Below are positions 1,372 through 23,292 of a DNA stretch of 64,000 nucleotides, piece after piece. The translations under genes and the position numbers were made by a program. The notes beneath the pieces are model-generated. The model was not told where the DNA came from and did no database searches. It saw nothing but the letters and a program-made list of their open reading frames with translations. Origin of the DNA: a virus (Duplodnaviria; Caudoviricetes); IMG/VR virus record IMGVR_UViG_3300032233_002382, positions 128,001-192,000 of that record. The stretch is one strand, 5' to 3'. Within the stretch, counting starts at the first letter, position 1. Each line of letters begins with the position of its first letter.

Positions 1372-2700
1372 ATGGCCAAAGCTCAACCAGTCGCGAAGTT
1401 ACACCCTAAGCTTGCTAGATTTATGGCAGGAATGGAAAAGAAATCCGGCATTGATATGCAGGATATTGTTGTTACTCCATCGCTTAAGATGGAACATATT
1501 AACACGGGTTCGACAGTATTAAACATGCTTATTGGCGGCTCTCGGGTTGGAGACGGTTCCTTCCTGTGCCCAGGATATCCTAGAGGCAAAATTATCGAAA
1601 TCTACGGTCGTGAGTCGAGCGGCAAATCCACAATAGCGTTGATGGCGGCCGGTCAGGCTGTTGCATCTAACGGTGGAACTGGAAGCGTGCTTTATGTGGA
1701 TCTTGAGCACGCTGTTGTAGATGCGTATGCATTGAAGCTTGGCGTTGACTTTCGGCCTATAGAGCTTGGCGGTAACGGTCAAGCTATCCGCGTTGCACCC
1801 CACATCTTCGAAGAGACTGAGGCTCTTGTTAACGGGGCTGCCCTGAACGGAGTCGATCTGATCGTGGTTGACTCGGTTGCTGGTCTTGTGTCGCGACGTG
1901 AGGCCTCAAGAGATCTCACCAATGAGAAAGAAAAGCAGGGCGTCGCTGAAATCCCGCGCTTGATGAGCGCTTGGATGCCTAAGCTACAGGCCATTATTGC
2001 AAAGACAGGCACCACCGTTATATTCCTTAACCAGACTCGAGACAAAATCGGAGCTATGGGATATACGGAAGAAGCTCTGAAGAGCACCACTGGTGGTAAC
2101 GCGCTCAAATTCTGGGCCTCTCTACGCATGATGCTAAAGCCTAAGCAATCGGCGAAAGCGAAGGTGTTTAATCCGATCATTAAGGAGTATGAGGAAGTCC
2201 CCGTAGCTACCGACGTTGAAGTCAAAAACATAAAGAATAAGATTGATGCCCGCCAGGGACATACTGGTCTCATTACGATCCGTTATGGAGTCGGCATTGA
2301 TGAAATGCGGACGATGTTAAACGTGGCAGAAGCGTATAACATCGTGAAAATGAGCAAAAACGCTCGCAAGCAGGAGGTTTATACTTATAAATGTGCAGCT
2401 ACTGGTGATGTGATTGAAGCTATTGGGGTGGAGAAGTTCCGGGTTGCTATGCAGCGCAATTCTACTGCATTTGAAGAGATGATGAGCGCTTGCCGTGATC
2501 GTATCATTCAAGGATTCCGAGCTATTGACGACGAGCAGCTTGCCCAATTGGCTGAAGATGCGGTCACTAAGAAGATCGACGATGAAGATGAATATTTAGA
2601 CGACTCGTCTACTGCGTTGGTGAGTCCAAATGATATGGGACTTGACGATTCGGAAGAAGACTCCGATTCGAATGTCACTATTTCAGCCGACGACGTCTAA
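1372..2700 (+). CDS. recA: RecA-family recombinase with acidic C-terminal tail
   Basis: GYPRGKIIEIYGRESSGKST (Walker A), LIVVDSVA (Walker B), IFLNQTR, TTGGNALKF. Confidence 0.95.
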   Translation: MAKAQPVAKLHPKLARFMAGMEKKSGIDMQDIVVTPSLKMEHINTGSTVLNMLIGGSRVGDGSFLCPGYPRGKIIEIYGRESSGKSTIALMAAGQAVASNGGTGSVLYVDLEHAVVDAYALKLGVDFRPIELGGNGQAIRVAPHIFEETEALVNGAALNGVDLIVVDSVAGLVSRREASRDLTNEKEKQGVAEIPRLMSAWMPKLQAIIAKTGTTVIFLNQTRDKIGAMGYTEEALKSTTGGNALKFWASLRMMLKPKQSAKAKVFNPIIKEYEEVPVATDVEVKNIKNKIDARQGHTGLITIRYGVGIDEMRTMLNVAEAYNIVKMSKNARKQEVYTYKCAATGDVIEAIGVEKFRVAMQRNSTAFEEMMSACRDRIIQGFRAIDDEQLAQLAEDAVTKKIDDEDEYLDDSSTALVSPNDMGLDDSEEDSDSNVTISADDV

Positions 2701-2711
2701 GGAGGAAACCT

Positions 2712-4769
2712 ATGGAAAACGCTTACTGGTCTCTACCTGTTATAGGTCCGCTGCTTCGTTCGCTTAATGTACAAGACCGAGAAGGTCTAATGTCTCTAAA
2801 TATATCCGATCTCGTGACGCGCAATGGTGTGGGTCGCACCAAAATGATGGCGTTGGTTGACCTCATCAATGCCGAAAAGAAGCAAAAGGAAATCGCCGGA
2901 ATTTCGTCTGATCTATATACGCTGTGTAAACCCTACCTCCATCTACCTGCTAAGTCCTGTTTGGGAAGGCTGAACTCCCGGTTAGAATCTAAGATAGATG
3001 AATATAACCTTCATACTGTAGCTGATGTCATTCGTTGGATCGAAGCAGTGGATGTTAAAGATGAACTAAACTACGGCCATAAAACACATGAATGGGCTAA
3101 AACAAGACTCTCTGATCTGTCTCGGGTAGGTCCGAACGTGTTAGTATTCGGACAGAATACCAGTCCTCAAACCGCTGATGAATTCGTGGAGTTGTACTTC
3201 AAGAATATCGAGAATCCTGCTTATCTTTCGATATTTAAGGAGTATTTTGCAGATGACAAAACGCTGGATGAAATCGGAAAAACTCGGACTCCACCCGTTA
3301 CGCGCGAGAGAATTCGCCAGATTATGGACATTCAAGTCCGTAGAGATTCGGACGGATGGTCTCGAGTCGCAGCTGACATACTAGATGTCCTTACCAGAAA
3401 GCTCGATGCTCAAAACGGCGTAGTGACGGAGTCTGCAGCTTTAAGTCTTACTGGTGCGAAGTACACTTGGCAAATCGATTTGCTGTCAAAGATTGCTGGA
3501 AGAGAGTTACACTTCCCCCGTGGTCGGCGCGAGGGAATTGTGTGTATTTATAAATCAGATGAACTATCGGATCTATGTAGTGAACTTGGCGAAGCGATCG
3601 ATTCGATACTTGAAGAATCGAATGTGCTAGTCAATCTACAGGAAAAGCTCAAGGATTATGGATTCGAATATGGGGATGAATTTAAGAACATCCTTCCCAT
3701 CCTTGCGAACGTAGAAATTAATGGAGATAGAGTATATGATAGTCGTAAGAAGATAAACACTTCTTACGTTGAGACATTAAGATCATTCGGACGACCTGCG
3801 ACCGCGAGAGAAATCACGGAAAAGCTGTCGGAATCTGATTCTAGTATATCTAACAGGCTCCATACTACGATTACTCAGCTTCGTCGGTCGTCTGAAGTAT
3901 TTAAGACGGATGACCACAAGTTCGTCCACGAAGAACACCTCGGTTTCAGCGTTAAACAGCTTAAAGCACTTGCAGTGGAAGCCTGCAAGCTTGTACCTCG
4001 AAATGGTTCTGCTGTAAACGTACGCCGGTTACTTAAAGAGCTAAGCGCTAGTAACCAGATTCCTGCTTCTCTGAGCCCTTTTACCTTGCGTGATGCCATG
4101 ATGTTGGTTGGAGATGTTAGGAGCTGGAGAGCTGGTTGTGATGTCGCTTGGATCTGTGAGAATACTCATCGGCTTACAATCCCCGAGTACTTTGATGAGA
4201 TAGCGCCAACATTGGATCAGCCGTTTTCGATGAAGGATCTCGTAGACTCGGTTTGTAAGATCAGCGGCTATTTGCCTGAATCTGTTAAAATGCAGTTTCA
4301 TTCAAATGAGTCTACTGTTCATATTGGTTACAATCTCTACGTAGCAAGGTCGGCGATTGAACCGGACTCCGCAAAATTCGACCAGTTGGTCAACGTTGCC
4401 GCGTCGCACGTGCCTGCTGTCGGTGTCGTAACGGGTCATGAGTTAGCAGCGTCTTGTAAAGAGCTTAAGTTATTAGCTAAAAAGCATGGTCCTGGTTTAA
4501 TATGGGGTCTTGCTAAACTTCACAAGAATATCGTGGCACGTTCACGTGGGCTTTTGCTTTACTCAGCGGCACACCCCAATCTGTGGAGCGCCTTTAAATC
4601 CGACCCACGCTGGAAGCTGCCGTCGACTTTCACAAGTGACGATCTGAGAAAGTGTATCATAGGCGAATTCAAGATAAATACCTACAGCTATTCTTATTAT
4701 CTGTTAAAGGACGCAATGTCTACTAAGGAAGTATCACTTAATCATGCAGACATGTACACGTCAGCGTAA
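2712..4769 (+). CDS. Multidomain protein: two RNAP alpha-CTD-like HhH domains, sigma70 region-4 HTH and winged-helix-like segments
   Basis: LRSLNVQDREGLMSLNISDLVTRNGVGRTK and LNSRLESKIDEYNLHTVADV...NYGHKT resemble alphaCTD; TLDEIGK...VTRERIRQI is the sigma4 motif; PATAREITEKL is wHTH-like. Confidence 0.6.
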   Translation: MENAYWSLPVIGPLLRSLNVQDREGLMSLNISDLVTRNGVGRTKMMALVDLINAEKKQKEIAGISSDLYTLCKPYLHLPAKSCLGRLNSRLESKIDEYNLHTVADVIRWIEAVDVKDELNYGHKTHEWAKTRLSDLSRVGPNVLVFGQNTSPQTADEFVELYFKNIENPAYLSIFKEYFADDKTLDEIGKTRTPPVTRERIRQIMDIQVRRDSDGWSRVAADILDVLTRKLDAQNGVVTESAALSLTGAKYTWQIDLLSKIAGRELHFPRGRREGIVCIYKSDELSDLCSELGEAIDSILEESNVLVNLQEKLKDYGFEYGDEFKNILPILANVEINGDRVYDSRKKINTSYVETLRSFGRPATAREITEKLSESDSSISNRLHTTITQLRRSSEVFKTDDHKFVHEEHLGFSVKQLKALAVEACKLVPRNGSAVNVRRLLKELSASNQIPASLSPFTLRDAMMLVGDVRSWRAGCDVAWICENTHRLTIPEYFDEIAPTLDQPFSMKDLVDSVCKISGYLPESVKMQFHSNESTVHIGYNLYVARSAIEPDSAKFDQLVNVAASHVPAVGVVTGHELAASCKELKLLAKKHGPGLIWGLAKLHKNIVARSRGLLLYSAAHPNLWSAFKSDPRWKLPSTFTSDDLRKCIIGEFKINTYSYSYYLLKDAMSTKEVSLNHADMYTSA

Positions 4770-4803: not shown

Positions 4804-6072
4804 ATGAATCCTATTAAAGTTCAGATCCGTAACTTTCAAAGCATTGAGTCGATAGATTTCGAAATAAACGGGTTTACCTGCTTAGTAGGTAAGACAAATG
4901 TAGGCAAAAGCGCGATAGTGCGTGCTATCACTTCTGCCATACTCAATAATCCTGTGGTCGGAATGGTCAGGCACGATCGACCCCATGCATCTGTTCGACT
5001 CACATCAGACCATTATGATATTTTATGGGAAAAGGCTGAACGCGGTTTAAACCGCTATCATGTCAATGGGAAGATGTACGACAAAGTAGGAGGCAACCAA
5101 CTTAAGGAAATTGAAGACCTGGGCTTCAAATCCGTTAAAGTGGGAAGTGATGAAATACTCCCTTGGTATGCATCACAATTCTTTCCAATATTTCTGCTCG
5201 ATCGAACAGGTCCGCAGGTAACCGATTTTATATCGGATATTTCTCGACTAAATGTGATTCAGGATGCCATTGTACTGTCTAACAGGAGAAAGAAACGCAA
5301 GAATGACATTATTGGTCTGAAAGAAAAAGATCATTCAGAAGATTCTGCTAAACTGAAGAGGATCGTTTCGCTTGACGCGCTTTTGTTAATAGGCCAGGAT
5401 TTACAAGATCAGAAACAATCGATAGAATCATATGAGAGTTCAGTTCTTTCAGCATCACGTTTGCAAGAGCTGATTGCTGATGCTTCATCTTTATTGTCGA
5501 ATATCTCCGCTGTAGAAACAGTATCATTACCAGATGTTGATACTATTGACATCGAGCTTTATGCCAAAGCTTCGGACTTGTATACAGATCTGCAAAGCAA
5601 TGCTAAATCGATCAGTGTGATCAAACAGATATCTAAAATACCAATATCTGAAGAACCGATTGAATTTAAAGAATATGCGAAGATAAGATCATTACCTGAC
5701 ATATCCGATTTAGCTAATAAAGTGTCACAGCTCGAGTCGATTAACGCGGTGTCGATAATCGACCAAGATCTTTCTGATCATATTGATAAGCTCAAGTCGG
5801 CTGAATCAGTACATCAAAGCATTAATAAAAACAGGTCCTTCGTGGGCGGGATAAGCGAGATAGAATTCCCAATAAGCTCTGTACTGGATGAGTACTTGAA
5901 TTACCGATCCCTGGTTCAGCTCGCAAGTCATATGTCGACTATTGCCAAGGAAGCGCGATCAGACAAGATCAAAATAGCAGACATGGAAAACGAGCTTAAG
6001 GTCGTTGAGGCTGACTTGTCTTCGATACCAACCTGCAGTACTTGTAAGCAACCAGTTCAGCACGAGCACTAA
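4804..6072 (+). CDS. SbcC/Rad50/gp46-like ATPase, N-terminal half ending at the zinc hook
   Basis: IRNFQSI...LVGKTNVGKSAIVRA (Walker A), coiled coil, terminal CSTC; no ABC signature or Walker B. Confidence 0.8.
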   Translation: MNPIKVQIRNFQSIESIDFEINGFTCLVGKTNVGKSAIVRAITSAILNNPVVGMVRHDRPHASVRLTSDHYDILWEKAERGLNRYHVNGKMYDKVGGNQLKEIEDLGFKSVKVGSDEILPWYASQFFPIFLLDRTGPQVTDFISDISRLNVIQDAIVLSNRRKKRKNDIIGLKEKDHSEDSAKLKRIVSLDALLLIGQDLQDQKQSIESYESSVLSASRLQELIADASSLLSNISAVETVSLPDVDTIDIELYAKASDLYTDLQSNAKSISVIKQISKIPISEEPIEFKEYAKIRSLPDISDLANKVSQLESINAVSIIDQDLSDHIDKLKSAESVHQSINKNRSFVGGISEIEFPISSVLDEYLNYRSLVQLASHMSTIAKEARSDKIKIADMENELKVVEADLSSIPTCSTCKQPVQHEH

Positions 6073-6563
6073 CCTAAATGAACTCCGCACATTCTTCTGA
6101 GGTCATCCAGATGCTGAGTGTCTGTAAGGGCGATATTCTCACCTAGCACTCTCAAAGCCGTGTTGTCTCCCGATATTTCACAAAGCTGGCGCGCTTTAGC
6201 AATTAGCTCCAACTCCATATCTACTAGACATTTACATAGAGACGGTAAATCTGAAGCACAATTTAGAGAGACATTCGTTATATTTGGATCCACGCCCATT
6301 CCCATTAATTTCATCGCTAAATCGTATGCGTGTTCTCTTTCCTCTTCTGCATGCTCTTGCCAGTGATCCACTAAAGCGTCTCTCCATGGACCTGTAACTC
6401 GATCTGCAAAGCTTCTATATGCAATATCAATTTTGTACTTACACACCAAAAGGTCCATTATTGTGTTTGATACGATATTACTGTCAGCGCCGTACGCGCC
6501 TTCCAACTCTATAGTCAAAGCGATTTTCTTTGATATATCATTTAGGTTGGCCATACCATACAT
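6069..6563 (-). CDS. Ferritin-like (Bfr/DPSL-type) four-helix protein
   Basis: EEEREHAYDLA...GMG, MELE and DTQHLDD align with di-iron helix motifs. Confidence 0.75.
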   Translation of the reverse strand: MYGMANLNDISKKIALTIELEGAYGADSNIVSNTIMDLLVCKYKIDIAYRSFADRVTGPWRDALVDHWQEHAEEEREHAYDLAMKLMGMGVDPNITNVSLNCASDLPSLCKCLVDMELELIAKARQLCEISGDNTALRVLGENIALTDTQHLDDLRRMCGVHLG

Positions 6564-8170: not shown

Positions 8171-8785
8171 CTATAATGTGGTTAAAATTGATAATAGAAT
8201 TTGAGTATATCCTACTATTACGTTTATATCCTGCGGCGCATCAAACCCGTCTACAATCGCATACTGAGACGGATATGGGATGTGAACAAACAATGGTTTT
8301 GCTTTAATAAAGCCTTCGTAATATGCAGATAGCATTTCGTAATATAAGCTATTACAGGTGTGAGTACCAGCATGGTAGCTTATCGACGAAGGAATCGACT
8401 GAGATTGTAAGGAAGCCTGGATGTCTGCGACGTTTACCGGAGTTACAAAAGCCGGAGGCGCGTTTGGTCTAATTGTTCTATTATATACTGGGATTTTAGT
8501 ATTATCACCGATCGCTGAATCCTCAATGTTAAGAGCGAATTTCTCGAGTTTAAGACCTCGAGCTCTTTCGCTGGCTCCAAACATAATGAGGTATTCAGGG
8601 TTAAATGATTTTGTCGCCCTAATTAGCATCTGGGCGTTTTGACGGAAAATTTGAGGCAGAATTATAGCTTGTAATTCGACGTCCGTTTGCTTTATTTCGT
8701 TCGAAACAAATGTGGACACCAAGTCACCACTTGGTGTCCGCTTCAGATTGTAAATTGGCTCGAATCCGCTGATAAGTATTTTCAT
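8171..8785 (-). CDS. pcp: Pyroglutamyl-peptidase I (peptidase C15)
   Basis: ILISGFEP, LEKFALN (Glu), AGTHTCN (Cys), FVHIPY (His); ATG 8785 preferred. Confidence 0.88.
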   Translation of the reverse strand: MKILISGFEPIYNLKRTPSGDLVSTFVSNEIKQTDVELQAIILPQIFRQNAQMLIRATKSFNPEYLIMFGASERARGLKLEKFALNIEDSAIGDNTKIPVYNRTIRPNAPPAFVTPVNVADIQASLQSQSIPSSISYHAGTHTCNSLYYEMLSAYYEGFIKAKPLFVHIPYPSQYAIVDGFDAPQDINVIVGYTQILLSILTTL

Positions 8786-8802
8786 ATCGGGTCCAATCAA
8801 GT

Positions 8803-8809
8803 GTATACT
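8803..8809 (+). promoter_or_regulatory. Putative -10 element (GTATACT) for the HD-MazG-guaB-guaA operon
   Basis: AAGTG-TATACT; predicted +1 is A8815, the first base of the AGGAGA SD. Confidence 0.6.
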
Positions 8810-8824: not shown

Positions 8825-9454
8825 ATGGCTAACAGCTGGGACGAATTTTTAGGGTGCATTCAGGGCGACATTCGCAGATTAGACTCCGTGATTCGTTATA
8901 ACAGTATACCGGTGTTACAAAGGGAGTCTGTGGCGACTCACACCTTTTGGGTTACACTATATGCGATTTTGATTCACAGACACATTCATAAGGGTGGCAC
9001 CGCGTCTCATGTGGAGCAGGAAATAATGCTAGCAGCGTTGACTCACGATTTGGCTGAATGTGTTACTGGTGATGTTGTTAGAACATTTAAGTACTCGAAT
9101 CCGGAGTTAAAGAGGTGTATTGACGAATCCGAGGATATGATGGTCGTTAGATATTTTCCGGAAGCTCTAAAGTCGATCATGAGGGACAGTGATCGAATCT
9201 ATTCATCGAGTAGCGGACAGTATGTGAAGTCGATTATTAAAGCAGCAGACTTCACGTCCTTGTTTATGTTTATGAATCGAGAATGGATCAGGGGGAACCG
9301 TGAGATAACGCCCTTCATCAAACGAATGGTCCGTGATTTAGAAGCGTTTGCGTATGTAGATGAATCGGCTGAGTGGTACGATAAAGAATTAAGCCACCTC
9401 TATCATTTAATGTCCGAGCAAGCTCTGTGCGTACCCCCTAACCGCGAAGTGTAA
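8825..9454 (+). CDS. HD-domain nucleotidase (YfbR/DatZ-like)
   Basis: IRYNS...ESVATH, LTHDLAECVTGDV, IKAAD, GNRE; AGGAGA SD before ATG 8825. Confidence 0.85.
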   Translation: MANSWDEFLGCIQGDIRRLDSVIRYNSIPVLQRESVATHTFWVTLYAILIHRHIHKGGTASHVEQEIMLAALTHDLAECVTGDVVRTFKYSNPELKRCIDESEDMMVVRYFPEALKSIMRDSDRIYSSSSGQYVKSIIKAADFTSLFMFMNREWIRGNREITPFIKRMVRDLEAFAYVDESAEWYDKELSHLYHLMSEQALCVPPNREV

Positions 9455-9462
9455 AACCCATC

Positions 9463-9963
9463 ATGCTTATCGAAGAGAGAAACGTCGTCCAAGCACGAGT
9501 TGACGAACTTGATCGCCTTATGAACCAGATACCTGATGGAGGGTTACCAGAGACCGTTCGTTCGTATCTGTTAGCGAGGAAAAAGGAGCTCGAGGATCTG
9601 GGGGTTCAGTCGCAGGATCCCATCCTCACCTCGGTGATACGGTCGCATAAAGCGATATGTGCGGCAAAAAACATGGAAGAGAAGGCCGCGTATGGTCAAG
9701 ATCCGGCGGTTTATTACTCTCTAGGCATTTGTGGTGAAGCTGGAGAACTGGCCAACAACGTAGTTAAGAGTCTCCGGAATGGATGGGATCGTGTCCGTAT
9801 ATTAGAAGCCGTTAAAGGCGAGTTGCCTGACGTAATCATATATTCTTACATTCTGGCCTATGTACTAGATATAGATCTCACTAAATTAGTAAACGAGAAA
9901 GTCGAGATCGTTATTAAACGAGCGAACGCCGGGTACTACGGCGGTGAGATAGGTAAATCATGA
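9463..9963 (+). CDS. MazG-like nucleotide pyrophosphohydrolase with N-terminal helical extension
   Basis: LGICGEAGELAN...GELPDVIIY...LDIDL...NEK. Confidence 0.8.
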   Translation: MLIEERNVVQARVDELDRLMNQIPDGGLPETVRSYLLARKKELEDLGVQSQDPILTSVIRSHKAICAAKNMEEKAAYGQDPAVYYSLGICGEAGELANNVVKSLRNGWDRVRILEAVKGELPDVIIYSYILAYVLDIDLTKLVNEKVEIVIKRANAGYYGGEIGKS

Positions 9964-11027
9964 GGCTCGGATTGACGTTTGATGATGTGCTCTTGGTACC
10001 TCAGCACAGTGCAGTTCTTCCGAGTGGTGTCGATGTTTCGACGAAGTTTAGTCGGAACATCGACATGTCCATACCTATTTCTTCGAGCGCTATGGACACA
10101 GTTACCGAATCTGCGATGGCGGCAGCCCTAGGACAACTAGGCGGTGTGGGCGTAATTCACAAAAATAACTCGATTGACGAACAAGTATCACTTGTGCAGA
10201 CTGTTAAGCTTTACGATCCTTCGCTAACGATCTGTGCTGCGGTAGGAGTGAGTGATGATTGGAGGAAGCGTACCGAGTCGCTTATTAAGGCTGGTATAAA
10301 AGGAATAGTCTTAGATTCTGCTCATGGTCATTCGGAGAATGTGCTGGTAGTTGCCAAGACAATTAAGCGAGACTATTCGGAAGTCGATGTGATCGTCGGA
10401 AACGTAGCGACTGCTTCGGCAGCTCAAGCACTCTGTGACATCGGGATAGATGCGATCAAGGTCGGGATCGGTCCCGGATCGATATGTACTACTAGGATCG
10501 TCGCGGGAGTTGGAGTACCTCAACTAACCGCTATTCTGGATGTGGTACCGGTAGCAGATCGTTATGATATTCCGGTTATAGCAGACGGTGGCATAAAGCA
10601 TTCAGGCGACATCGTTAAAGCTTTAGCCGCAGGAGCCGATTCCGTAATGATTGGAAGCCTCTTAGCGGCAACCGATCAGTCTCCAGGTGCTGAGTTCGAA
10701 TCCGATGGGATCCGGTACAAGTCATATCGGGGAATGGGATCTGAAGCGGCGATGTCCAAGGGATCTAAAGACCGATATTTCCAGTCTGAGTCTACAAAGT
10801 TCGTACCTGAAGGTGTTGAAGGGGCGGTTCCACTTAAAGGCGCTACAAAAGACGTGATATTCCAGTTGGTCGGAGGTCTCAGAAGCGGGATGGGCTATTG
10901 TGGCGCAAAGAATCTAGCCTCGCTTCGTTCGAATGCCGAGTTCATTCAAATCACGACCGCTGGACTATCTGAGTCTCACGTTCACGGTCTTAGTTCATTT
11001 AAGAAATCGTTAAACTACGGAATTTAA
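9960..11027 (+). CDS. guaB: IMP dehydrogenase lacking the CBS pair
   Basis: [47 protein letters not shown] (catalytic Cys), IADGGI, YRGMGS, VPEGVEG; 355 aa. Confidence 0.97.
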
Positions 11028-12551
11028 ATGCAAAAGATTCTAATAGTAGACTTTGGCTCACAATACACCCAGTTGATTGCTAGGCGGATCAGGTCTTTCA
11101 ACGTGTTTTGTGAAATTGTGTCGTGTAAAACTGATTTAACGCCACATTTGACCAAAGATACTCGAGGAGTGATTCTTTCTGGCGGACCTGCAAGCGTCAA
11201 CGATCCAGGCGCACCTCAGCTCGATATGCGATTGCTAGAAATTGGTGTGCCGGTTCTAGGTATATGCTACGGATTTCAGCTCCTGGCTAAGTCTCTAGGA
11301 GGTGAAGTATCCAAATCCGATTCGCGAGAATATGGCTTATCTTATTTGATTCCGGATGAAGAGTATTATCTTAAGTCTGATGCGGATTCTCAGGTCTGGA
11401 TGTCTCATGGAGATAAAGTAACCAAGCTTCCTAATGGCTGGGTTCGAATTGCTTCTACAAGCACTTGCGAATTCGCGGTTGCCGAAGATATTAGTGGACT
11501 TATTTGTGGAATTCAGTTTCATCCAGAAGTGACTCATACACCTGACGGGTCTAGAATCCTTAAGGAATTCGTGCGTTCTTGCCGAATTTCGAGCGAATGG
11601 ACGAGCCAATCATTCATCGATAAGGCGGTTGAAGACATTAAAATCACTGTTGGATCTGATAACGTGATTTGCGCTTTGTCCGGTGGAGTCGATAGTGCAG
11701 TTACGGCAGCTCTTATATATAAAGCCATAGGAAGCCAGCTTACTTGTGTGTTTGTAGATAACGGTCTTATGCGACATAATGAAAGACATGATATAGAAGG
11801 CACATTTTCTTCAATGTTCGGAGGTTCCTTTCATTGCACCGATGCGGGTTTAGAATTCCTGCACGCCCTGCAAGGTGTGTCTGATCCGGAGCAAAAAAGA
11901 AAAATCATCGGACATAAATTCATAGAAGTATTCGATAGATTTGTTGCTGAATCCTCCATCGAATATAAGTTTTTAGCCCAGGGCACTTTATATCCAGATG
12001 TCATCGAAAGTACCAGCGCCAATGGGCCTAGCGCAGTAATCAAGAGTCATCATAATGTGGGAGGACTGCCAGAAGGCATTAAATTTTCGCTATTAGAGCC
12101 GCTGCGCTATCTATTTAAGGATGAAGTTCGTGAAGTAGGTCGGTCACTTGGCATAGATTCGAAAATTATTGATCGACAGCCTTTTCCAGGACCAGGATTG
12201 GCGATCCGCATATCAGGAGCCGTCGATGAGCTTAAGCTAAGTATTCTTCGCAGGGCAGACCTGATTGTTCGTGAGGAAGCGGCTAAGAGAGGACTCGACA
12301 AAACGACTTGGCAATGTTTTGCGGCTCTTCTGCCGATTCGCACGGTCGGCGTAATGGGCGACGGTCGGACTTACGATTATATGGCTTGTTTGCGAGTTGT
12401 AAACAGCGAGGATGGAATGACGGCCAGCGTGCCGTGGCCGATTGAATTCCTCGAACAAACCAGTTCGAGGATTGTTAACGAGGTCAAAGGAATAAATCGA
12501 GTAGTTTACGACATTACGACAAAGCCGCCATCTACCATCGAACTCGAGTGA
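11028..12551 (+). CDS. guaA: GMP synthase (glutamine-hydrolysing)
   Basis: DFGSQYTQLIARR, LGICYGFQ, QFHPEV, LSGGVDS, QGTLYPDVIES, IKSHHNVGGLP, PFPGPGL, KPPSTIELE. Confidence 0.97.
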   Translation: MQKILIVDFGSQYTQLIARRIRSFNVFCEIVSCKTDLTPHLTKDTRGVILSGGPASVNDPGAPQLDMRLLEIGVPVLGICYGFQLLAKSLGGEVSKSDSREYGLSYLIPDEEYYLKSDADSQVWMSHGDKVTKLPNGWVRIASTSTCEFAVAEDISGLICGIQFHPEVTHTPDGSRILKEFVRSCRISSEWTSQSFIDKAVEDIKITVGSDNVICALSGGVDSAVTAALIYKAIGSQLTCVFVDNGLMRHNERHDIEGTFSSMFGGSFHCTDAGLEFLHALQGVSDPEQKRKIIGHKFIEVFDRFVAESSIEYKFLAQGTLYPDVIESTSANGPSAVIKSHHNVGGLPEGIKFSLLEPLRYLFKDEVREVGRSLGIDSKIIDRQPFPGPGLAIRISGAVDELKLSILRRADLIVREEAAKRGLDKTTWQCFAALLPIRTVGVMGDGRTYDYMACLRVVNSEDGMTASVPWPIEFLEQTSSRIVNEVKGINRVVYDITTKPPSTIELE

Positions 12552-12881
12552 TTAAAACCCACCATTCAGGTTTCCACGAAAGAGCTTGTAGAAGGGCAGC
12601 GTGTTTTTAGGATTATTTATTACGTTGTATGGTCTTTGGTCTTGCTGTATTTGCGACTGGACTAGAGGGATTTCCAGAGCCATCCGTCGTAAGCATTCAT
12701 CAGTAGTGACTCTTAAAAGATCATTTTTAGCATGCGGATTTCTTTGGAGAATGAATGTCACCTGATCGTAGGTGAGTTGGTCTAGTCTACACTTTCCTTG
12801 TATAAACCACATATTGTTCGAACAGTCACCATCACATAATGATTTAGATGCATCTGGATTGCAGTTATCGTCCATGTTCAT
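12552..12881 (-). CDS. Hypothetical protein
   Basis: ORF with AGGAG SD. Confidence 0.55.
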   Translation of the reverse strand: MNMDDNCNPDASKSLCDGDCSNNMWFIQGKCRLDQLTYDQVTFILQRNPHAKNDLLRVTTDECLRRMALEIPLVQSQIQQDQRPYNVINNPKNTLPFYKLFRGNLNGGF

Positions 12882-12890
12882 CTGAGACTC

Positions 12891-13646
12891 CTAAATTCTA
12901 GTTGTGACTACACAGTTTTCATTGAATCGTAGACCATTTCGATGTACTTGCCAATCCTTACTAATGATCGAAGATCCACCGCATCCGAAGTCGAGAGTGT
13001 ATCCTGAGTTGTCTTCCACACCATAGTTATTCGCTATCGCTAGTGTGCAGTCGTTACGTTTGCAGAAATCCATCCAGTTGTTCGGAGGAAATCCTGATTT
13101 GCCCCAATTCGCACATGCCAACACGATGTCAGGTTTCGAGGTCGAAAAAATAGGATTATTTCCTAAGTGTGGTGGAGATTTCGATCTAATGTCGCGGCAA
13201 ATCAGCAGGGACACCTTTCCGTGCGGCGTTTTTATGATTCCGGGCTCTTCTTCTCCCACGCTTGCCCAAAGGAAATCGTTAGCCCACAAGTTCCGTTTCT
13301 GATAAGTAGATACTAAGTCCCCATTCGGATCGATTAGATTAGCAGCATTATATAGCGAATCATCGCGTCGTTCCATGAATCCATATGCTATGTAACAGGA
13401 GAGCTCCTGGGCGAACCTCGACATTTTGTTAAACGTAGGACCATCACAAGGCTCGCATAGAGTATTTACGACGCTTGAGTCTACGTGAGCATAGCCACTA
13501 AAACATAGTTCGGGCAAAACTATGATTTCGCTACCTAATTCTCCGGCCTGATATATCAAAGAGGAAGCTTTTCTTAAATTATCTGATATATCGGCTGCGC
13601 AAGATGCTAGACGCGGTTTATACTGTATTACTGATATTATGCTCAT
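12891..13646 (-). CDS. Carbon-nitrogen hydrolase (nitrilase-family amidohydrolase)
   Basis: VLPELCFSGY (Glu), YQKRNL (Lys), LICRDI (Cys) catalytic triad. Confidence 0.88.
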   Translation of the reverse strand: MSIISVIQYKPRLASCAADISDNLRKASSLIYQAGELGSEIIVLPELCFSGYAHVDSSVVNTLCEPCDGPTFNKMSRFAQELSCYIAYGFMERRDDSLYNAANLIDPNGDLVSTYQKRNLWANDFLWASVGEEEPGIIKTPHGKVSLLICRDIRSKSPPHLGNNPIFSTSKPDIVLACANWGKSGFPPNNWMDFCKRNDCTLAIANNYGVEDNSGYTLDFGCGGSSIISKDWQVHRNGLRFNENCVVTTRI

Positions 13647-15808: not shown

Positions 15809-16068
15809 CAGGACCTTGCCTTTTTTGTGACAAGCCTTCGCCATTGCGTGTAAAAGCGAATACCGTAGAGAATAATAGAGACTTGCATGTGTGCGATATG
15901 CACTGGAAGATACTTCAAAATCCGCACACAGCTTTACCTTTTTTGCGTGGCGTAAGCATGATGCAGCTACAAAGAGACGAAATAAAATATGACGGAACCG
16001 TTAAGAAGCTAGTTGAAGGGTATTTTGATAGTATCGCTAAGTGGAAAAAGCAAAATCCGAAGAATTAG
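15805..16068 (+). CDS. Small Zn-finger-like hypothetical protein
   Basis: CLFC ... CDMH; ATGA overlap with the upstream gene. Confidence 0.55.
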   Translation: MTGPCLFCDKPSPLRVKANTVENNRDLHVCDMHWKILQNPHTALPFLRGVSMMQLQRDEIKYDGTVKKLVEGYFDSIAKWKKQNPKN

Positions 16069-16696
16069 AAACAACACCATTTATTTTATGGCGTATTTCT
16101 CGTATGTGCTTGTTCGTGATGGTCTTCCCGCCGTAAGATAAAGCTAGGCGGATAACCTCAACGTTCGCTCCGGTGCGAGCAGCTCTAATGAATTTTGCGC
16201 AGTCATACATCTTCTTTTGTCGGCATATTTCTTCAAGTTCAAGAACGCTTTCACTTTCCACAAAATTGCTCGATGGTTCCATCTCGGCTGTCTCTACGAG
16301 CGGTCGTTCTTCATCATTCATTGGTTCATAAATGCTGTCTTTTTCCTTGTCGTACCTTCTCTTTTTGTGAACAAGGTTTATACACACGTTGTTCGCGACC
16401 ATGTAAACATAGTGACCGAAACTCGACTTGCGCGGATCATGGGCGCTTTTCGTGTAATTCTTGTGAAGGATCGCTGCATAAACCTCCTGGAGCAGTTCTT
16501 CCATAGGAATACCTTCAACACTAAAAAATTTGTGTACTAGCTTAATGATATCCTGACGCTTCTTTAGAACGTCGATTCCCAGATCCACTTTGTCATTATC
16601 AACAGCTTTACGTGGCCATGGATACTTTGTGGGAGCTTTTTTGAGTTCTTTTTCGGTCCGAATATAAGCAATCGCTGGCTGGTCGGCTGCGCTCAT
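16037..16696 (-). CDS. Sigma70-family (ECF-like) RNA polymerase sigma factor
   Basis: EELLQEVYAAIL...HDPRKSSFGHYVYMVANNVCINLVHKKRR (region 2); GAGGG SD. Confidence 0.72.
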   Translation of the reverse strand: MSAADQPAIAYIRTEKELKKAPTKYPWPRKAVDNDKVDLGIDVLKKRQDIIKLVHKFFSVEGIPMEELLQEVYAAILHKNYTKSAHDPRKSSFGHYVYMVANNVCINLVHKKRRYDKEKDSIYEPMNDEERPLVETAEMEPSSNFVESESVLELEEICRQKKMYDCAKFIRAARTGANVEVIRLALSYGGKTITNKHIREIRHKINGVVSNSSDFAFST

Positions 16697-18070: not shown

Positions 18071-18601
18071 CAAATTTTTCGGAATTTCAAATATTTGTAG
18101 CACTTTGTGTAATACCGATGACATGGCTAATTGAAAATCGCTAACCCCAACCACCCTGATGCTCTCTAAGCTCTCGAGAAGTTCTAATATTCGATCGATT
18201 TCGCATTTATAAGTAAAATCGATGTATATACCCAGTGGAAGCATTGGCACGATATCGGCCGGGTCCGTTAGATGCTGAGATATGTTCTTAAAAATAAGAC
18301 ATGTCCTATTAAGCTCTGCATGTAGAGCGGAATTCACCGATGCTGATATGGAACGTACAGACCTTGCTGGTAGACTGAATCTTTCATCCGTTAGCTGTGG
18401 CATCCACGTGGCGACAGGATCGGCGATTCGAAAATTCTCAATTATTCCACGGGGGAGTAAGACTGGACTTAAAGTCTGAAACAATATACAAGGAATCCTG
18501 ATTTCTATGGAAGCGCGTCGCTTAATCGGATCACATGCATCGAGACGCACTTGTCCATGCTCGAAGAATGTCGCATCATCAAGCGGCGCCGGATCACTCA
18601 T
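18053..18601 (-). CDS. Degenerate ThyX-fold protein lacking the RHRx7SxR catalytic motif
   Basis: By-eye alignment to ThyX: HGQVRL, IEIRIPCIL, WMP, LPLGIYIDFTYK; translationally coupled to dcd. Confidence 0.5.
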   Translation of the reverse strand: MSDPAPLDDATFFEHGQVRLDACDPIKRRASIEIRIPCILFQTLSPVLLPRGIIENFRIADPVATWMPQLTDERFSLPARSVRSISASVNSALHAELNRTCLIFKNISQHLTDPADIVPMLPLGIYIDFTYKCEIDRILELLESLESIRVVGVSDFQLAMSSVLHKVLQIFEIPKNLLSDSN

Positions 18602-19139
18602 TGCGTCTTTTACCTTTCGCAGGCGTGGCCCCCATCTGCATGTTGTAGTGGGATTTCAGACGGCTGCTACCATATAAGGTTTGACTTGGGGAAGTCATCG
18701 TAAAATACGATAGTTGTGCGATCTTCATTCCTTCATACAGCACAATTTCCCAAGGACCGTGGTTAACTATTTCAAGCGTAATTTGGCCTCGGAATCCAGC
18801 GTCCACCACGCCCGCTGTAACGTGGATCGCCAAAAACAAACGACCTAGACTGCTCTTTCCTTCTACTCGTGCCGATAAATCCTGAGGACACTCGACGATT
18901 TCCTGAGTGCATCCCAGAATAGACTCGCCTGGCAAAATAATAAACTCGTTTGCGCGGATTATCGTCATACATTTCGAGGGATCATCATCTCTGAGATCGA
19001 TTCTCACCCCGAGGTGGGGCAGTGCGAACGAATCTGACAGGGATAGATCATAGCTTGAAGGTTGAACACGGCCTTCTGCAAACGGCTTAATAAGATCAGG
19101 TCCTCTTGCAAGTATTTCACGATCGCTAAGCACACTCAT
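18594..19139 (-). CDS. dcd: dCTP deaminase (EGKSSLGRL type, possibly dUMP-forming)
   Basis: LSDREI, VQPSSYDL, RVEGKSSLGRL, HVTAGVVDAGFRGQITLE, IAQL, YGS; GGAG SD before ATG 19139. Confidence 0.93.
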   Translation of the reverse strand: MSVLSDREILARGPDLIKPFAEGRVQPSSYDLSLSDSFALPHLGVRIDLRDDDPSKCMTIIRANEFIILPGESILGCTQEIVECPQDLSARVEGKSSLGRLFLAIHVTAGVVDAGFRGQITLEIVNHGPWEIVLYEGMKIAQLSYFTMTSPSQTLYGSSRLKSHYNMQMGATPAKGKRRNE

Positions 19140-19151
19140 CACTACTCCGAA

Positions 19152-19427: not shown

Positions 19428-22247
19428 TATCTCGAATTCAGGCACGCTTATCTTCGGAGATTTCTCCTCTGATATCAAAATCTTATTCGACGTATTAAGC
19501 ACACGAAGTGGGGTTCGGCCTTCGGCAAGTATGCAGATGGCGTGAAATTTCCTGAGGTTTAGTTCATTCATAGGAGCCCTGAACACGAACCTATGTACCG
19601 AGTTATCAGCATTAATCGCTTCTGGTGGCGCTGCATTTGAAGAATCAGTCGTGTTGACTACTGTCTTAGGATCAGCATGATCAATACGCTCTTCAAGTAC
19701 GCTGTCGCTGCGTTCACGATCCACGCTAGATACTTGCGATACTTCCGTGCTTAGAGCCTGTATGGGTGGATCGAGTTCTACTTCGTTGTGATGTTCCACT
19801 GATTCAGAAGATGGAGACTCGGATTCGGGATTAGATACGACTTCAGCCTCAAACGGATTCGGCTCTTCAGATTTCGCTTCTACTTCACTCGCTCGTCGGA
19901 TCCAACTGGCCAAGAAATCTGGGACTTTCTGATATACTCGTCCGTTGTCGTAGTATTCATCTTTCTTAAGCTTGCCTTTAAAATTCCCATCAATATCGAA
20001 TTCTTTGGGTTGAGGCTTAACGCCATCAACCATCTTAAAGTAGTCATAACGAGCTTTCCAGTTTATGTCGATACCCGGTTCAGTCAGCAAAGGTACTACC
20101 CAATCGCGACCGTGAGCCTTAGGCAGCTTCCAAGGCATTGTCATCCATTCATCTAACTTACGCACTGCTTCCATGAGAAGTTCGGGCTTAATCTCGTATA
20201 CGACTTCATCATGGACCGTAAGGACATACTTTACCTTATCCTCCCAACCGTTCGCTCTAATATTCTTATCGACAAAACACATGGCGAATTTAAGGATGTC
20301 GGCAGAGGTTGCCTGAATTGTATAATTGATCGCACACCGTTCCGCTTTTGAACGGATCATCCTTATTGGGCTATCAATTGTCGGGATTGGTATACGCCGC
20401 CCATAAGCCGTGAAGATCGCTTTGTGCTTCTTGGCGAAATTCTTCTGATGGTCCACGTACCCCATGAGAACCGGCACATCGCGCTTAAGATTTTCCATGT
20501 GACGACCTGCGTCCTCCATGGAACACCCGATATTGCGCTGGATGGCGCCAGCACCACCACCGTAAATGAAGGCAAAGTTACACCGTTTGCCACGGTTACG
20601 TTCATCTTTGCTGACTACATCTTTACCGAATAATGTCTTTGCCGTAATTGCATGAACGTCACCGTCTTTATTTAAGAAGGAATCGGTCCAAATGGGATCG
20701 CCTGAAAGATTCGTAACCACCCGAAGTTCTTCGCCTGCGAAGTCTAGCTTGACTAAGAAATAACCAGGTCTAGGAGTAATGCAAGACCTTATCTGCTTGA
20801 ACAACTCCGGTTTATCATCATCTGAATCTCGGGGGATACCTTGGAAATTTATGCCGGAGTAACCGTTCTCGATATCACCAGCTCTAGACGCGAGACGAGC
20901 AGTATCGGTCCCCATCTGTCGGAAGTCAGGTCGAACGTCACCGTTTTTGTCGACTGCCAAAGAAAGGGGCTCGACGTAACTTCCTTTCATCTTTAGATAG
21001 TGTCGCCATTCGATGATCAATTCGAACAAACTGATCATCTTCTGCTTGCCGTCTTTATCCAGGTGGCCCTTATGGGGTAGCATGAACTTAGCCCCGTAGG
21101 CTTCGTGCAAACTCTTCATCGCTTCATCTTTAAGCGAGTATTGCTTTTGTGCCTCCCCTGGCGTCTCAGACACATCATCGTCATCATCTGAGTCCGAAGA
21201 GGCGTTCCCGCCTTGTTCCTGCTCCCCCAACATAACGGAAGTAGGCTTTAGCTTAAGACCTTCCGGATCTGTAATGAGAGCGGTTGATAATTGCTTCGGA
21301 CTGCCTACGTTGAGAGTCGACCAACGACCGGTCTTACCGGTCCTAGACTCAATACAGTTCCTGATCTGGTCACCGACTTCTAGTAATTCTCTGTCGCATT
21401 CGATCGCCAATTGCTTTACACGTTCTACGTCTACATGGACGCGATTGCGTTCCATCTTACGTAGCACATTGCAGAAACTCTTCTCAAGGTTATATATCTT
21501 TTTGTCGCCTTCAGATAGTTTCTCCTGTAAGGCGAAGTTCAGAAGGTATGTGAAAATCCCGTCACTACATCCGTACTCAAGACCTTCCTTCGGATGAAGA
21601 ACACCGAAGTTGTGGGTCGATCTCTTCTCTCTCTTGAGCTGAGCTCTCATTTCATCGGTAAAGAGTTCATCAAGTTCGATCATATCTACGTTAAAATAAA
21701 CTTTAGCTAGTTGCTTTAACCCGCTTGGTGATCCCTTGAGCGGATTGAGAACTTTAGTCATCAAAAACGTGTCTTCATATTCATCGATTTTCCAGGTCTC
21801 TTTACCGGTCACCGCATAAAGGAATTCCTGGTCGAATTTCGCATTATGAAATACAGCTTTCGATTTAGAATGAACAAGTCGCTCGATTTCATTCCAAGCC
21901 AAGTCCCACTCTAAATTGGGGCTACCCTCAGGTTCATGAGAGAGTGGAATGTAATAACCATTCTTTCCATCAAAGGAAATGCAAACGCCTACAATGCGAT
22001 CGATCGTTCGCATCCCATGACGAGTCAGCTTCCCATCGTCGAAGTATGAATCTTCATATACTCGATTATCAACGCCCGTCGTTTCTAAGTCTAATGAATA
22101 AACATTACGGGAAATACACATGTCAACCAGCTTGGCTAATTGAGATATGCTAGACACAAGGTGGAACTTATAGTCAGACATCCAATTACGCATCACGCTG
22201 GGTTTGTCGTCGTACTGTAATAAATTCAAGGCATCCTCCGATACCAT
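19401..22247 (-). CDS. polA: Family A DNA polymerase with 3'-5' exonuclease and C-terminal extension
   Basis: ExoI LDLETTG, ExoII FHNAKFD, ExoIII YGCSD, motif A LDFAGEELR, motif B RGKRCNFAFIYG, motif C TVHDEV; exact start uncertain. Confidence 0.95.
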   Translation of the reverse strand: MVSEDALNLLQYDDKPSVMRNWMSDYKFHLVSSISQLAKLVDMCISRNVYSLDLETTGVDNRVYEDSYFDDGKLTRHGMRTIDRIVGVCISFDGKNGYYIPLSHEPEGSPNLEWDLAWNEIERLVHSKSKAVFHNAKFDQEFLYAVTGKETWKIDEYEDTFLMTKVLNPLKGSPSGLKQLAKVYFNVDMIELDELFTDEMRAQLKREKRSTHNFGVLHPKEGLEYGCSDGIFTYLLNFALQEKLSEGDKKIYNLEKSFCNVLRKMERNRVHVDVERVKQLAIECDRELLEVGDQIRNCIESRTGKTGRWSTLNVGSPKQLSTALITDPEGLKLKPTSVMLGEQEQGGNASSDSDDDDDVSETPGEAQKQYSLKDEAMKSLHEAYGAKFMLPHKGHLDKDGKQKMISLFELIIEWRHYLKMKGSYVEPLSLAVDKNGDVRPDFRQMGTDTARLASRAGDIENGYSGINFQGIPRDSDDDKPELFKQIRSCITPRPGYFLVKLDFAGEELRVVTNLSGDPIWTDSFLNKDGDVHAITAKTLFGKDVVSKDERNRGKRCNFAFIYGGGAGAIQRNIGCSMEDAGRHMENLKRDVPVLMGYVDHQKNFAKKHKAIFTAYGRRIPIPTIDSPIRMIRSKAERCAINYTIQATSADILKFAMCFVDKNIRANGWEDKVKYVLTVHDEVVYEIKPELLMEAVRKLDEWMTMPWKLPKAHGRDWVVPLLTEPGIDINWKARYDYFKMVDGVKPQPKEFDIDGNFKGKLKKDEYYDNGRVYQKVPDFLASWIRRASEVEAKSEEPNPFEAEVVSNPESESPSSESVEHHNEVELDPPIQALSTEVSQVSSVDRERSDSVLEERIDHADPKTVVNTTDSSNAAPPEAINADNSVHRFVFRAPMNELNLRKFHAICILAEGRTPLRVLNTSNKILISEEKSPKISVPEFEILSRLFGVG

Positions 22248-22251
22248 CAAT

Positions 22252-22258
22252 GTACATT
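22252..22258 (+). promoter_or_regulatory. Putative -10 element (GTACATT) for dnaJ
   Basis: Predicted +1 is G22264, the first base of the GAGG SD. Confidence 0.5.
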
Positions 22259-22272
22259 TAATCGAGGTTAGA

Positions 22273-23292
22273 ATGGATTATTACGAGGTATTAGGGGTAA
22301 CAAGAGCGTCTGACGAAGAGACGATAAAGAAAGCATACAGGAAACTAGCCTTCGAATATCATCCGGACCGGAACAATGGCGATAGCTTAAAAGAAGCTAA
22401 GTTCAAGGAGATAAACGAGGCCTATGCTACCCTAAGCGACGCTGCTAAACGAAAGTCGTACGATGCGAAGTTCTCTGGGGCGCCCAAGATCGACGATATT
22501 TTCAATGAGATATTTCGTAATTTCCACAGAAGGCAATCTCAAGAATTTAGAGTCGAATCACTGCCGGGCGCTGACATTGAAGTAAACGTTAAAATATCTC
22601 TAATCGACTCATATGTCGGTAAGTCCATCGACGTAGACGTTCCTCACAGTAACGAATGCGGTACCTGCCGAGCGACGGGAGCAAAACCAGGAAGCCGTGT
22701 CATTACATGCCAAACTTGCTACGGTAATGGATACTTTAGGGATCCATTCAATATAGGAAATCGGAAGTGTCCGGCGTGTAAAGGACGAAAAGTATTTCCG
22801 ATCGAAAAATGTGACGCCTGTGCTGGTGAAGGATCTAAGGCCACGAAGGAATCCGTGAACGTTAAACTACCATCGGGCATTAAAGACGGGCATGTCATAA
22901 AAATTAATGGTAAAGGCGAACCCGGAGATCCAAACGGAGATCTGCTATTAAACATCATCACCATTATGACACCAGGCATTCGCCGTGTCGGTGATGACTG
23001 TTATCACGACCTAGAATTACCTATATCGTTAATGATAACAGGAGGACGACATACCTTCCCCACGCAGATGGGTTATTCACTAGACGTTTCAGTAGAACCG
23101 AACAGCAAAACCGATGATTTCGTCCAGATAAAAGGTAAAGGATTTCGCAATCTATCGACGAATGGGATCGGGGATTTGTACTTGATTCTGAAACCACAAT
23201 TACCATCGAATATTCCGGAAACTGCAAAAGAGCTTCTTAATAAATTCATCGAAGAATGCGAAAATCATAACTGCTTTAGTCGGGACAAATGA
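22273..23292 (+). CDS. dnaJ: DnaJ/Hsp40 chaperone (J domain, four CxxCxGxG-type Zn motifs, C-terminal domain)
   Basis: DYYEVLG...EYHPDRN; CGTCRATG, CQTCYGNG, CPACKGRK, CDACAGEG; GAGG SD before ATG 22273. Confidence 0.93.
   Translation: MDYYEVLGVTRASDEETIKKAYRKLAFEYHPDRNNGDSLKEAKFKEINEAYATLSDAAKRKSYDAKFSGAPKIDDIFNEIFRNFHRRQSQEFRVESLPGADIEVNVKISLIDSYVGKSIDVDVPHSNECGTCRATGAKPGSRVITCQTCYGNGYFRDPFNIGNRKCPACKGRKVFPIEKCDACAGEGSKATKESVNVKLPSGIKDGHVIKINGKGEPGDPNGDLLLNIITIMTPGIRRVGDDCYHDLELPISLMITGGRHTFPTQMGYSLDVSVEPNSKTDDFVQIKGKGFRNLSTNGIGDLYLILKPQLPSNIPETAKELLNKFIEECENHNCFSRDK

Follow-up and report, generated by a model that had tools for sequence, protein, structure and literature searches.

A four-gene purine nucleotide operon that probably supplies and edits precursors for 2-aminoadenine DNA in a huge phage

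In the datZ-mazZ-purZ clusters of phages S-2L and phiVC8, a PurZ-type synthetase is accompanied by an HD and a MazG-fold hydrolase (PMC8342488, PMC8065100). Enzymes of this accessory kind have been acquired independently around PurZ and converge on the removal of deoxyadenosine triphosphate (dATP) and the making of deoxyguanosine monophosphate (dGMP) (PMC12884076). In known phages with 2-aminoadenine (Z) in their DNA, the special chemistry begins at dGMP, with deoxyguanosine triphosphate (dGTP) supplied by the host. In this study, we analysed an operon in a stretch of 64,000 nucleotides (the window, C1:128001-192000) of an IMG/VR virus record of 307,777 bp (linear, CheckV completeness 72%), in which the genes for an HD phosphohydrolase and a MazG-like pyrophosphohydrolase are followed by guaB and guaA, encoding inosine monophosphate (IMP) dehydrogenase (IMPDH) and guanosine monophosphate (GMP) synthase. 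Here the pathway appears to begin two steps earlier, at IMP, and our analyses suggested that the operon probably, though by no means certainly, supplies precursors to a Z-DNA pathway in a huge phage and edits the nucleotide pool for it. Below, G numbers denote the virus records searched, G000 being the window's own genome, and L numbers denote loci.

The operon consists of four co-directional open reading frames (ORFs) on the + strand (Table 1). The stop codon TAA of the HD gene is separated by 8 nt from the ATG of the MazG-like gene, the MazG-like gene overlaps guaB in an ATGA, and the TAA of guaB directly abuts the ATG of guaA. An initial annotation made from the letters of the window had described these junctions and a tight coupling of the four genes, all of which was confirmed by ORF calls and junction reads; the gene identities that it had assigned were also right, as judged from profile matches and, for the MazG-like protein, from the fold as well. 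The same coupled operon was present in one locus from an NCBI assembly (L008) and two from Logan assemblies (L042 and L043), and because the same genes recur there in the same order the arrangement is not a product of chance.

The guanylate half of the operon is canonical in its catalytic residues and unusual in its regulation. The IMPDH matched PF00478 over the whole profile (5e-143) and TIGR01302 at 4.6e-130, as against 1.5e-60 for GMP reductase. TIGR01302 aligned in two stretches with the CBS part skipped, and its score of 434.5 bits fell under the cut-off of 481.5 because the match was split in two around this missing part. No match to PF00571 (CBS) was found in the 355-aa protein, where a short linker stands in place of the Bateman domain. 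The motifs comprised the Cys loop GSICTT at 173, DGG at 209, the Asp of which binds the ribose hydroxyls in IMPDH structures, YRGMGS at 256, KDRYFQ at 272 with the Arg-Tyr flap dyad inside it, and PEGVEG at 283. A GMP reductase identity was rejected, since the dyad is present and IMPDH models score far higher, and the protein is 56-63% identical to CBS-carrying bacterial IMPDHs. In IMPDH from bacteria, the Bateman domain is not needed for catalysis but is needed for inhibition by guanosine triphosphate (GTP)/GDP or (p)ppGpp, and its deletion from the E. coli enzyme disturbs the ATP/GTP balance (PMC9462843). From its sequence, the phage IMPDH is predicted to escape feedback by GTP/(p)ppGpp, because the domain at which this inhibition takes place is missing. 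The GMP synthase scored 704.5 bits with the equivalog NF000848 (cut-off 400) and is a complete enzyme with the glutamine amidotransferase triad C80, H165 and E167, the PP-loop SGGVDS at 218-223 and the C-terminal KPPSTIELE. The initial annotation had read ordinary IMP-to-GMP activity from canonical GSICTT(R), YRGMGS and PEGVEG motifs; the motifs were confirmed and we keep that judgement.

When the adenylosuccinate-synthetase family was searched for across the full record, a 391-aa ORF (L001:763-1938(-)) came up about 125 kb upstream of the operon. The earlier statement that no purZ lies in the window is accordingly true of the window and not of the genome. The best NCBIfam model of this protein was PurZ NF038379 (194 bits), slightly ahead of the archaeal-type PurA model, and it matched PurZ of phiVC8 (6fm1) and of S-2L (7odx) over the full length at ∼6e-31. 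Its P-loop, WGSSGKG, has Ser where PurA has the catalytic Asp, and reversion of this Ser abolishes PurZ selectivity (10.1101/2025.10.22.683976). In addition, T262, F295 and Y298 of phiVC8 PurZ were kept, with T302 corresponding to T262 and NFIQY carrying the other two, as were the dGMP-pocket residues of the S-2L enzyme (N49, A50, S131, T132, Q190, C204, T205, R240 and V241), of which V241 keeps out the 2'-OH (PMC8342488); residue roles were taken from these two sources. Identity as an ordinary PurA was rejected, since the Asp is replaced by Ser and the GTP-type motif has been lost. The record also contains a genuine PurB (L041:2478-3776; TIGR00928, 446 bits, cut-off 326) and a ribonucleotide reductase. 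The initial annotation had cast guaB-guaA as the biosynthetic partner in place of purZ, which did not hold: because the genome encodes a PurZ-type enzyme and PurB, both outside the window, guaB-guaA is best read as an upstream supply for PurZ and not as its substitute.

Other searches of the same genome were less informative. The family A DNA polymerase (PolA) scored 60 and 39 bits with the DpoZ models, far under the cut-offs, and is not recognisably a DpoZ. Searches of the 308-kb record (72% complete) for the guanylate kinase, adenosine/AMP deaminase and NDT/DmtZ families gave no match, and the three ORFs beside the PurZ-type gene matched no NCBIfam family. The PurZ-type protein is 65-81% identical across the huge-phage group, as against 36-61% for the HD protein. 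As a query it gave 2,289 database matches at E <= 1e-20, the best 120 of which were all at least 63% identical and many on contigs of 200-445 kb. This extensive PurZ-type lineage of huge phages was not found in the Z-phage literature covered.

The recurrence of guaB and guaA in phages that carry PurZ-type genes is the stronger argument for a link with Z DNA, stronger than the co-occurrence of the two hydrolases with PurZ. Two PurZ-type huge phages (G008 and G012) have a lone CBS-less IMPDH and a third (G035) has an IMPDH; G020 has PurZ, IMPDH and GuaA inside 62 kb. The complete 371-kb genome G033, whose PurZ is 43% identical, carries IMPDH and GuaA, and in the complete 315-kb genome G071 a CBS-less guaB adjoins guaA and the PurZ-type gene has a LAGLIDADG intein. 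The 159-kb record G060 combines GuaA with a PurZ0-like FGSEGKGK enzyme. All 10 phage IMPDHs examined lack CBS; among the nine checked for motifs, the Arg-Tyr dyad was kept in every one and the Cys-loop pattern was matched in eight. In the IMPDH tree the phage sequences formed the operon clade, a group of G071, G008, G012 and G020, and a very distant pair of G033 and G035, which suggests that phage IMPDHs have at least two origins. In the GuaA tree the window, L008, L042, G060, G033, G071 and G069 formed one clade (support 97/91). GuaA gave 17 matches in 50,697 GenBank phage records, all in prophage-edge or host-like fragments with no convincing phage-borne copy, and the full-length IMG/VR matches were mostly at provirus contig ends. 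A PurZ-type gene was found in 5 of 7 records, a set made up of the large non-provirus GuaA-bearing records searched together with G000, G020 and G033; these numbers are small and not phylogenetically corrected. All these GuaA and PurZ-type counts point one way, toward association.

Several further observations concern the same families. The intein in the PurZ-type gene of G071 (314,886 bp; L182:1348-3381(-)) contains a homing endonuclease of the LAGLIDADG type (Intein_splicing 1e-4, PF14528 3e-18), and its host protein aligned to the PurZ of the window's genome at 440 bits. In G001 (134 kb; L004:5980-7549) the IMPDH is found as two ORFs of 284 and 208 aa about 90 nt apart, which may reflect splitting of the gene, a frameshift or an intervening element; no PurZ-type gene was found in this record, which is 60% complete. 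Additional CBS-less IMPDHs of 357-366 aa lie on short metagenomic contigs (P0071, P0072, P0075, P0079, P0082, P0107, P0116 and P0157) and form two clades separate from the phage ones; one of these IMPDHs is labelled uncultured Helcococcus.

The pairing of HD and MazG proteins had been likened to DatZ and MazZ, which is a fair lead. The HD protein matched PF12917 (YfbR-like; 2e-19, 70.4 bits, cut-off 25.9) and PHROG 7076, annotated as dATP triphosphohydrolase (1.6e-20), and scored 50.4 bits with the NCBIfam equivalog NF003009 (YfbR), under the cut-off of 122. The top fold match of its AF2 model (pLDDT 87) was E. coli YfbR 2paq (TMt 0.71); S-2L DatZ 6zpa ranked seventh (TMt 0.65) and OxsA was among the matches too. 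Comparison of the protein with DatZ chains by phmmer gave no match at E <= 0.01, and hhalign of a profile of 26 HD homologues with S-2L DatZ gave a probability of 96%. The residues that bind metal and phosphate in DatZ (PMC8065100) correspond to H39, H74, D75, D142, E78, K89 and K139, all of them invariant here. The subfamily is specific to huge phages and has a strongly conserved loop motif of its own, GDVVRTFKYS. Judged by sequence, the protein belongs to a subfamily apart from its homologues DatZ and YfbR and is not a demonstrated DatZ orthologue; we infer its substrate by analogy with DatZ and regard it as a candidate dATP- or dAMP-clearing enzyme. Identity as a small alarmone hydrolase was rejected, the fold match to RelH being poor (TM 0.41).

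The MazG-like protein carries a helical extension of ∼50 aa at its N-terminus, scored 26.6 bits with PF12643, just under the cut-off of 27, and matched phrog_229 at 6e-7. Among 13 homologues, E92, E95, E120 and D123, the metal ligands of the ExxE...ExxD pattern, were invariant, as were K102 and R105. With its AF2 model (pLDDT 91.8) Foldseek recovered all-alpha NTP pyrophosphohydrolases only, in the order DCTPP1/RS21-C6 (TMt 0.70, ∼30% identity), iMazG and HisE, with S-2L MazZ 7ody at rank 40; by sequence, 7ody gave no match at E <= 1. The protein is an active-looking enzyme of the MazG superfamily. By analogy with MazZ it is a candidate (d)GTP and/or dATP diphosphohydrolase yielding deoxynucleoside monophosphates (dNMPs).

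Single-protein scans of IMG/VR with HD or GuaA found no relatives, alignment-based scans recovered them, and blastn of the operon against the 50,697 GenBank phage records gave no match. We obtained 66 HD homologues, many on contigs of 100-400 kb, and the MazG-like gene was the immediate or near neighbour of the HD gene in at least 13 related huge-phage loci. Among carriers of the operon, identity to the HD protein of the window ran from 61% down to ∼50%. L044 and L045 have the HD, MazG-like and guaB genes with one gene inserted after HD, and the contig stops just past guaB. The inserted gene (L044:2385-3509 and L045:1715-3484) has a weak MTES_1575 (restriction-endonuclease-like) domain and is possibly a mobile or homing element. 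The more distant L005 retains the HD and MazG-like pair only, only the HD gene was detected in L006 and L007, and guaB-guaA stands behind the pair in the window's sub-lineage alone. The initial annotation had considered a scattering of the genes in relatives damaging to the idea of a module, and on this point the outcome is mixed: the operon is kept in close relatives, and in more remote genomes the HD and MazG-like genes alone stay together and guaB is missing or lies at another site.

Five of the IMG/VR records with the HD gene are complete genomes (terminal repeats, 363-436 kb), and each of them carries a PurZ-type gene, at roughly 185-235 kb from the HD/MazG-like pair. In the reverse direction, 50 IMG/VR records with a PurZ-type gene showed HD and MazG-like genes confined to a close clade in which PurZ is at least 59% identical; each of its 5 complete genomes had both, as did G002. 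The pair was not found in the distant PurZ-type phages G026, G033, G040, G045 and G059, of which G033 had a weak MazG-like match only (2.4e-7). Such a clade-bound distribution fits the lineage-specific and convergent pattern of accessory pool enzymes around PurZ (PMC12884076).

These results can be joined in a scheme in which the Bateman-less GuaB would convert IMP to xanthosine monophosphate (XMP) free of GTP/(p)ppGpp feedback and GuaA would convert XMP to GMP, drawing IMP off the adenylate branch into guanylate. GMP would reach dGTP through host kinases and the phage ribonucleotide reductase; the MazG-like enzyme might then return dGTP to dGMP, like MazZ or DUF550, and perhaps also convert dATP to dAMP. 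From dGMP, the PurZ-type synthetase and the phage PurB would make dZMP, and the HD hydrolase would clear dATP as DatZ does, or dAMP as YfbR does, so that PolA, the polymerase that would need to accept dZTP, inserts Z and not A. Coupling guaB-guaA behind the two hydrolases would place supply and pool editing under a single control. At a G+C content of 44%, Z and G together would account for 50% of bases, whereas G by itself makes up 22%. The demand of DNA for guanylate would rise about 2.3-fold once A is replaced by Z, because both purines of the DNA would then derive from guanylate, and the demand for adenylate would be zero. The initial annotation's proposal that the module boosts the (d)G pool holds.

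A number of findings weigh against this scheme. In S-2L DatZ, I22 and P79 select adenine and W20 selects the deoxy sugar (PMC8065100), and in the HD protein these are replaced by S27, T87 and Y25, respectively; its closest structure, YfbR, is a dNMP nucleotidase. The MazG-like protein is closer to the dCTP pyrophosphatase DCTPP1 than to MazZ. The score of the synthetase with the PurZ model lies under the NCBIfam cut-off of 300, and its gene stands ∼125 kb from the operon, whereas datZ, mazZ and purZ are contiguous in known Z phages. The co-occurrence of the HD and MazG-like genes with PurZ inside one clade may reflect shared ancestry alone. Among the complete genomes of the close clade, 3 of 5 are without IMPDH and 5 of 5 without GuaA, and for this reason guaBA is an optional booster, an add-on, in that clade. 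The GuaA of G069 (104,166 bp, complete, with terminal repeats) falls into the clade of the huge-phage GuaAs, and no gene of the adenylosuccinate-synthetase family or PurZ type was found in that phage, which makes it a negative case for a link between PurZ and guaA. Furthermore, that the DNA of this phage contains Z is something we infer from genes and not from chemistry; "this phage" here means the one that carries the window.

Some of these points also feed a different account, rather unlikely in our view and still deserving attention, in which the operon belongs to generic purine auxiliary metabolism. The phage would simply raise GTP and dGTP so as to replicate and transcribe in freshwater hosts that grow slowly, a PurA-like enzyme and PurB would serve adenylate, and the hydrolases would sanitise the pool or act on alarmones, with no link to modified DNA. 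Canonical GuaB and GuaA suit such a role, a Bateman-less IMPDH would likewise evade (p)ppGpp control (PMC9462843), and the surroundings of the operon, which include RecA, an SbcC-like ATPase, dCTP deaminase, PolA and also DnaB, are those of a general replication and recombination module; the absence of guaBA from most clade members and the GuaA of G069 without a PurZ-type gene agree with it too. What tells against it is chiefly the synthetase, which is without the catalytic Asp of PurA, keeps the PurZ-specific ATP-stacking and dGMP-pocket residues and has PurZ as its top NCBIfam model. In addition, guaB and guaA recur in several PurZ-type lineages, GuaA is without a convincing copy in isolated phages, and PurZ is known to be accompanied by HD and MazG proteins (PMC8342488).

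The association with PurZ-type genes is also left unexplained by counter-defence, a very improbable reading in which dGTP is refilled against host dGTPases or other dNTP-depleting defences, or signalling nucleotides are removed, independently of Z DNA. The initial annotation had raised action against dGTP-depleting defence or the stringent response. The logic of a feedback-free guanylate line beside two nucleotide hydrolases is all that speaks for this reading, and none of the results points specifically to defence; no defence or anti-defence gene was identified next to the operon, and a MazG-type dNTP pyrophosphohydrolase would itself use up dNTPs. Still more improbable is unusual purine chemistry, with GuaB and GuaA acting on deoxy substrates (dIMP to dXMP to dGMP) or performing C2 oxidation and amination of an adenine nucleotide as a second route to Z. 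The translational coupling of guaB-guaA to two hydrolases of deoxynucleotide type is its sole support. On the other side, the residues of an IMP/XMP enzyme are all canonical, the Asp of DGG included, the phage IMPDH is as close to ordinary bacterial IMPDH as noted above, PurZ and PurB are already encoded, and the searches of the record, which is 72% complete, revealed no adenosine/AMP deaminase family. The C2 oxidation and amination that the initial annotation had floated is unnecessary, and GuaB and GuaA working at the deoxy level to recycle the host dA pool into Z (dAMP to dIMP to dXMP to dGMP to dZMP), starting from adenine deoxynucleotides that the HD/MazG-like pair removes, an undescribed interconversion line, seems to us highly improbable. 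We continue to prefer a supply and editing arm of Z-DNA synthesis.

The operon sits in a general block of replication and recombination genes (Table 1). The pyroglutamyl-peptidase gene is divergent from the operon across a gap of only 24 bp, and the ORF after the operon (12552-12881) is convergent. Genes of the ferritin-like protein, the pyroglutamyl peptidase and the carbon-nitrogen hydrolase are syntenic in L008 and that of the dCTP deaminase-like protein in L042. The single promoter predicted by the initial annotation exists as a sigma-70-like match at 9 of 12 positions, and it is weak: the region holds 12 such matches, as against 9.7 +/- 3.5 in shuffles, which is chance level. It falls within the start of the divergent pyroglutamyl-peptidase gene, and its -10 element would leave hardly any leader before the HD gene. 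The extracytoplasmic-function (ECF)-like motif GGAAGT-N13-CGT-N7-GTGG had 0 copies in the window, even at 2 mismatches. A hairpin at 8714-8739 was dropped as a terminator, as it lies inside the pyroglutamyl-peptidase frame, the Pfam match of which begins at residue 6. No RNA sequencing runs were listed as containing the stretch; the only run found to contain it was the DNA run that is probably its source.

Table 1. Coordinates of the operon genes and of neighbouring features in the window
Feature	Coordinates	Strand	Evidence	Remarks
RecA	1372-2700			
Sigma-70 region 4-like stretch in 685-aa protein	2712-4769	+		may be phage sigma factor
SbcC-like ATPase	4804-6072			
Ferritin-like protein	6069-6563	-		syntenic in L008
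Pyroglutamyl peptidase	8171-8800	-	PF01470 1.4e-27	syntenic in L008
Sigma-70-like promoter match TTCATA-17-TATACT	8781-8809	+	9/12 positions	weak candidate
HD phosphohydrolase, YfbR/DatZ/OxsA group, 209 aa	8825-9454	+	PF12917, PHROG 7076, fold	operon gene 1
MazG-fold all-alpha NTP pyrophosphohydrolase, 166 aa	9463-9963	+	PF12643, phrog_229, fold	operon gene 2
IMP dehydrogenase catalytic core, 355 aa	9960-11027	+	PF00478, TIGR01302	operon gene 3; without CBS/Bateman domain; IMP to XMP
GuaA, glutamine-hydrolysing GMP synthase, 507 aa	11028-12551	+	NF000848	operon gene 4; XMP to GMP
Carbon-nitrogen hydrolase	12891-13646	-	PF00795 2.9e-25	syntenic in L008
219-aa protein, weak sigma-70 region 2 match	16037-16696	-		may be phage sigma factor
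dCTP deaminase-like	18594-19142	-	PF22769 DCD 1e-37	syntenic in L042; same replication/nucleotide module
Family A DNA polymerase (PolA), 949 aa	19401-22250	-	PF00476 1.4e-65; NCBIfam Pol I 1e-79	
Full-length DnaJ	22204-23292	+	J domain, CXXCXGXG zinc-finger region, C-terminal domain	adjoins and overlaps PolA start region
DnaB-like helicase	26594-28102			

If the preferred reading is true, replacement of A by Z makes a guanylate shortage big enough to select for dedicated genes, and several PurZ-type lineages evolved the solution of guanylate supply, in whole or in part. The HD and MazG-like proteins would then be further non-orthologous stand-ins for DatZ and MazZ. Such a pathway would also offer parts for the engineering of Z-DNA production, namely a deregulated IMPDH, a GuaA and new hydrolases, as well as a set of marker genes to predict Z genomes in uncultured huge phages.

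Compared with the bacterial guaBA operon, the order of guaB then guaA and the catalytic residues are the same, and the proteins are 56-63% (IMPDH) and ∼50% (GuaA) identical. The phage IMPDH is without the CBS/Bateman domain of ∼120 aa through which bacteria exert ATP/GTP/(p)ppGpp control (PMC9462843), and the pair here is phage-borne and translationally coupled to two nucleotide hydrolases. For the HD protein, E. coli YfbR (2paq) is the best match in both sequence and fold, with the framework HD...HDxxE...GD...K...KxxD common to both; however, identity is only 21-24%, and the base-binding loop reads VRTFKYS here and PTPVKY in YfbR.

The comparison with the Z-cluster of S-2L and phiVC8 is closest in logic and protein folds: both hydrolases retain their catalytic metal ligands, and dGMP would be made and dATP removed. 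In contrast to that cluster, the three genes are non-contiguous here, with PurZ 125 kb off, the HD protein is of another subfamily (S27/T87 for I22/P79 of DatZ), as probably is the MazG-like protein, to which DCTPP1 is nearest, and the genome, of at least 308 kb, also brings PurB, ribonucleotide reductase and, uniquely, guaB-guaA. The operon works like the Z-cluster and is no straightforward member of it, as contiguity and the DatZ specificity residues fail and membership in a MazZ subfamily is doubtful. The HD/MazG-like pair fits among the non-orthologous pool enzymes of Z phages, such as DUF550/MazZ-2, the Dut-like DutZ, DUF5664 and DmtZ (PMC12884076). None of the accessory enzymes described there acts upstream of GMP, whereas GuaB and GuaA do, and no literature linking PurZ with IMP dehydrogenase or GMP synthase was found, that survey included. 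What appears to be new in these huge phages is a Z pathway extended upstream to IMP by means of a deregulated IMPDH.

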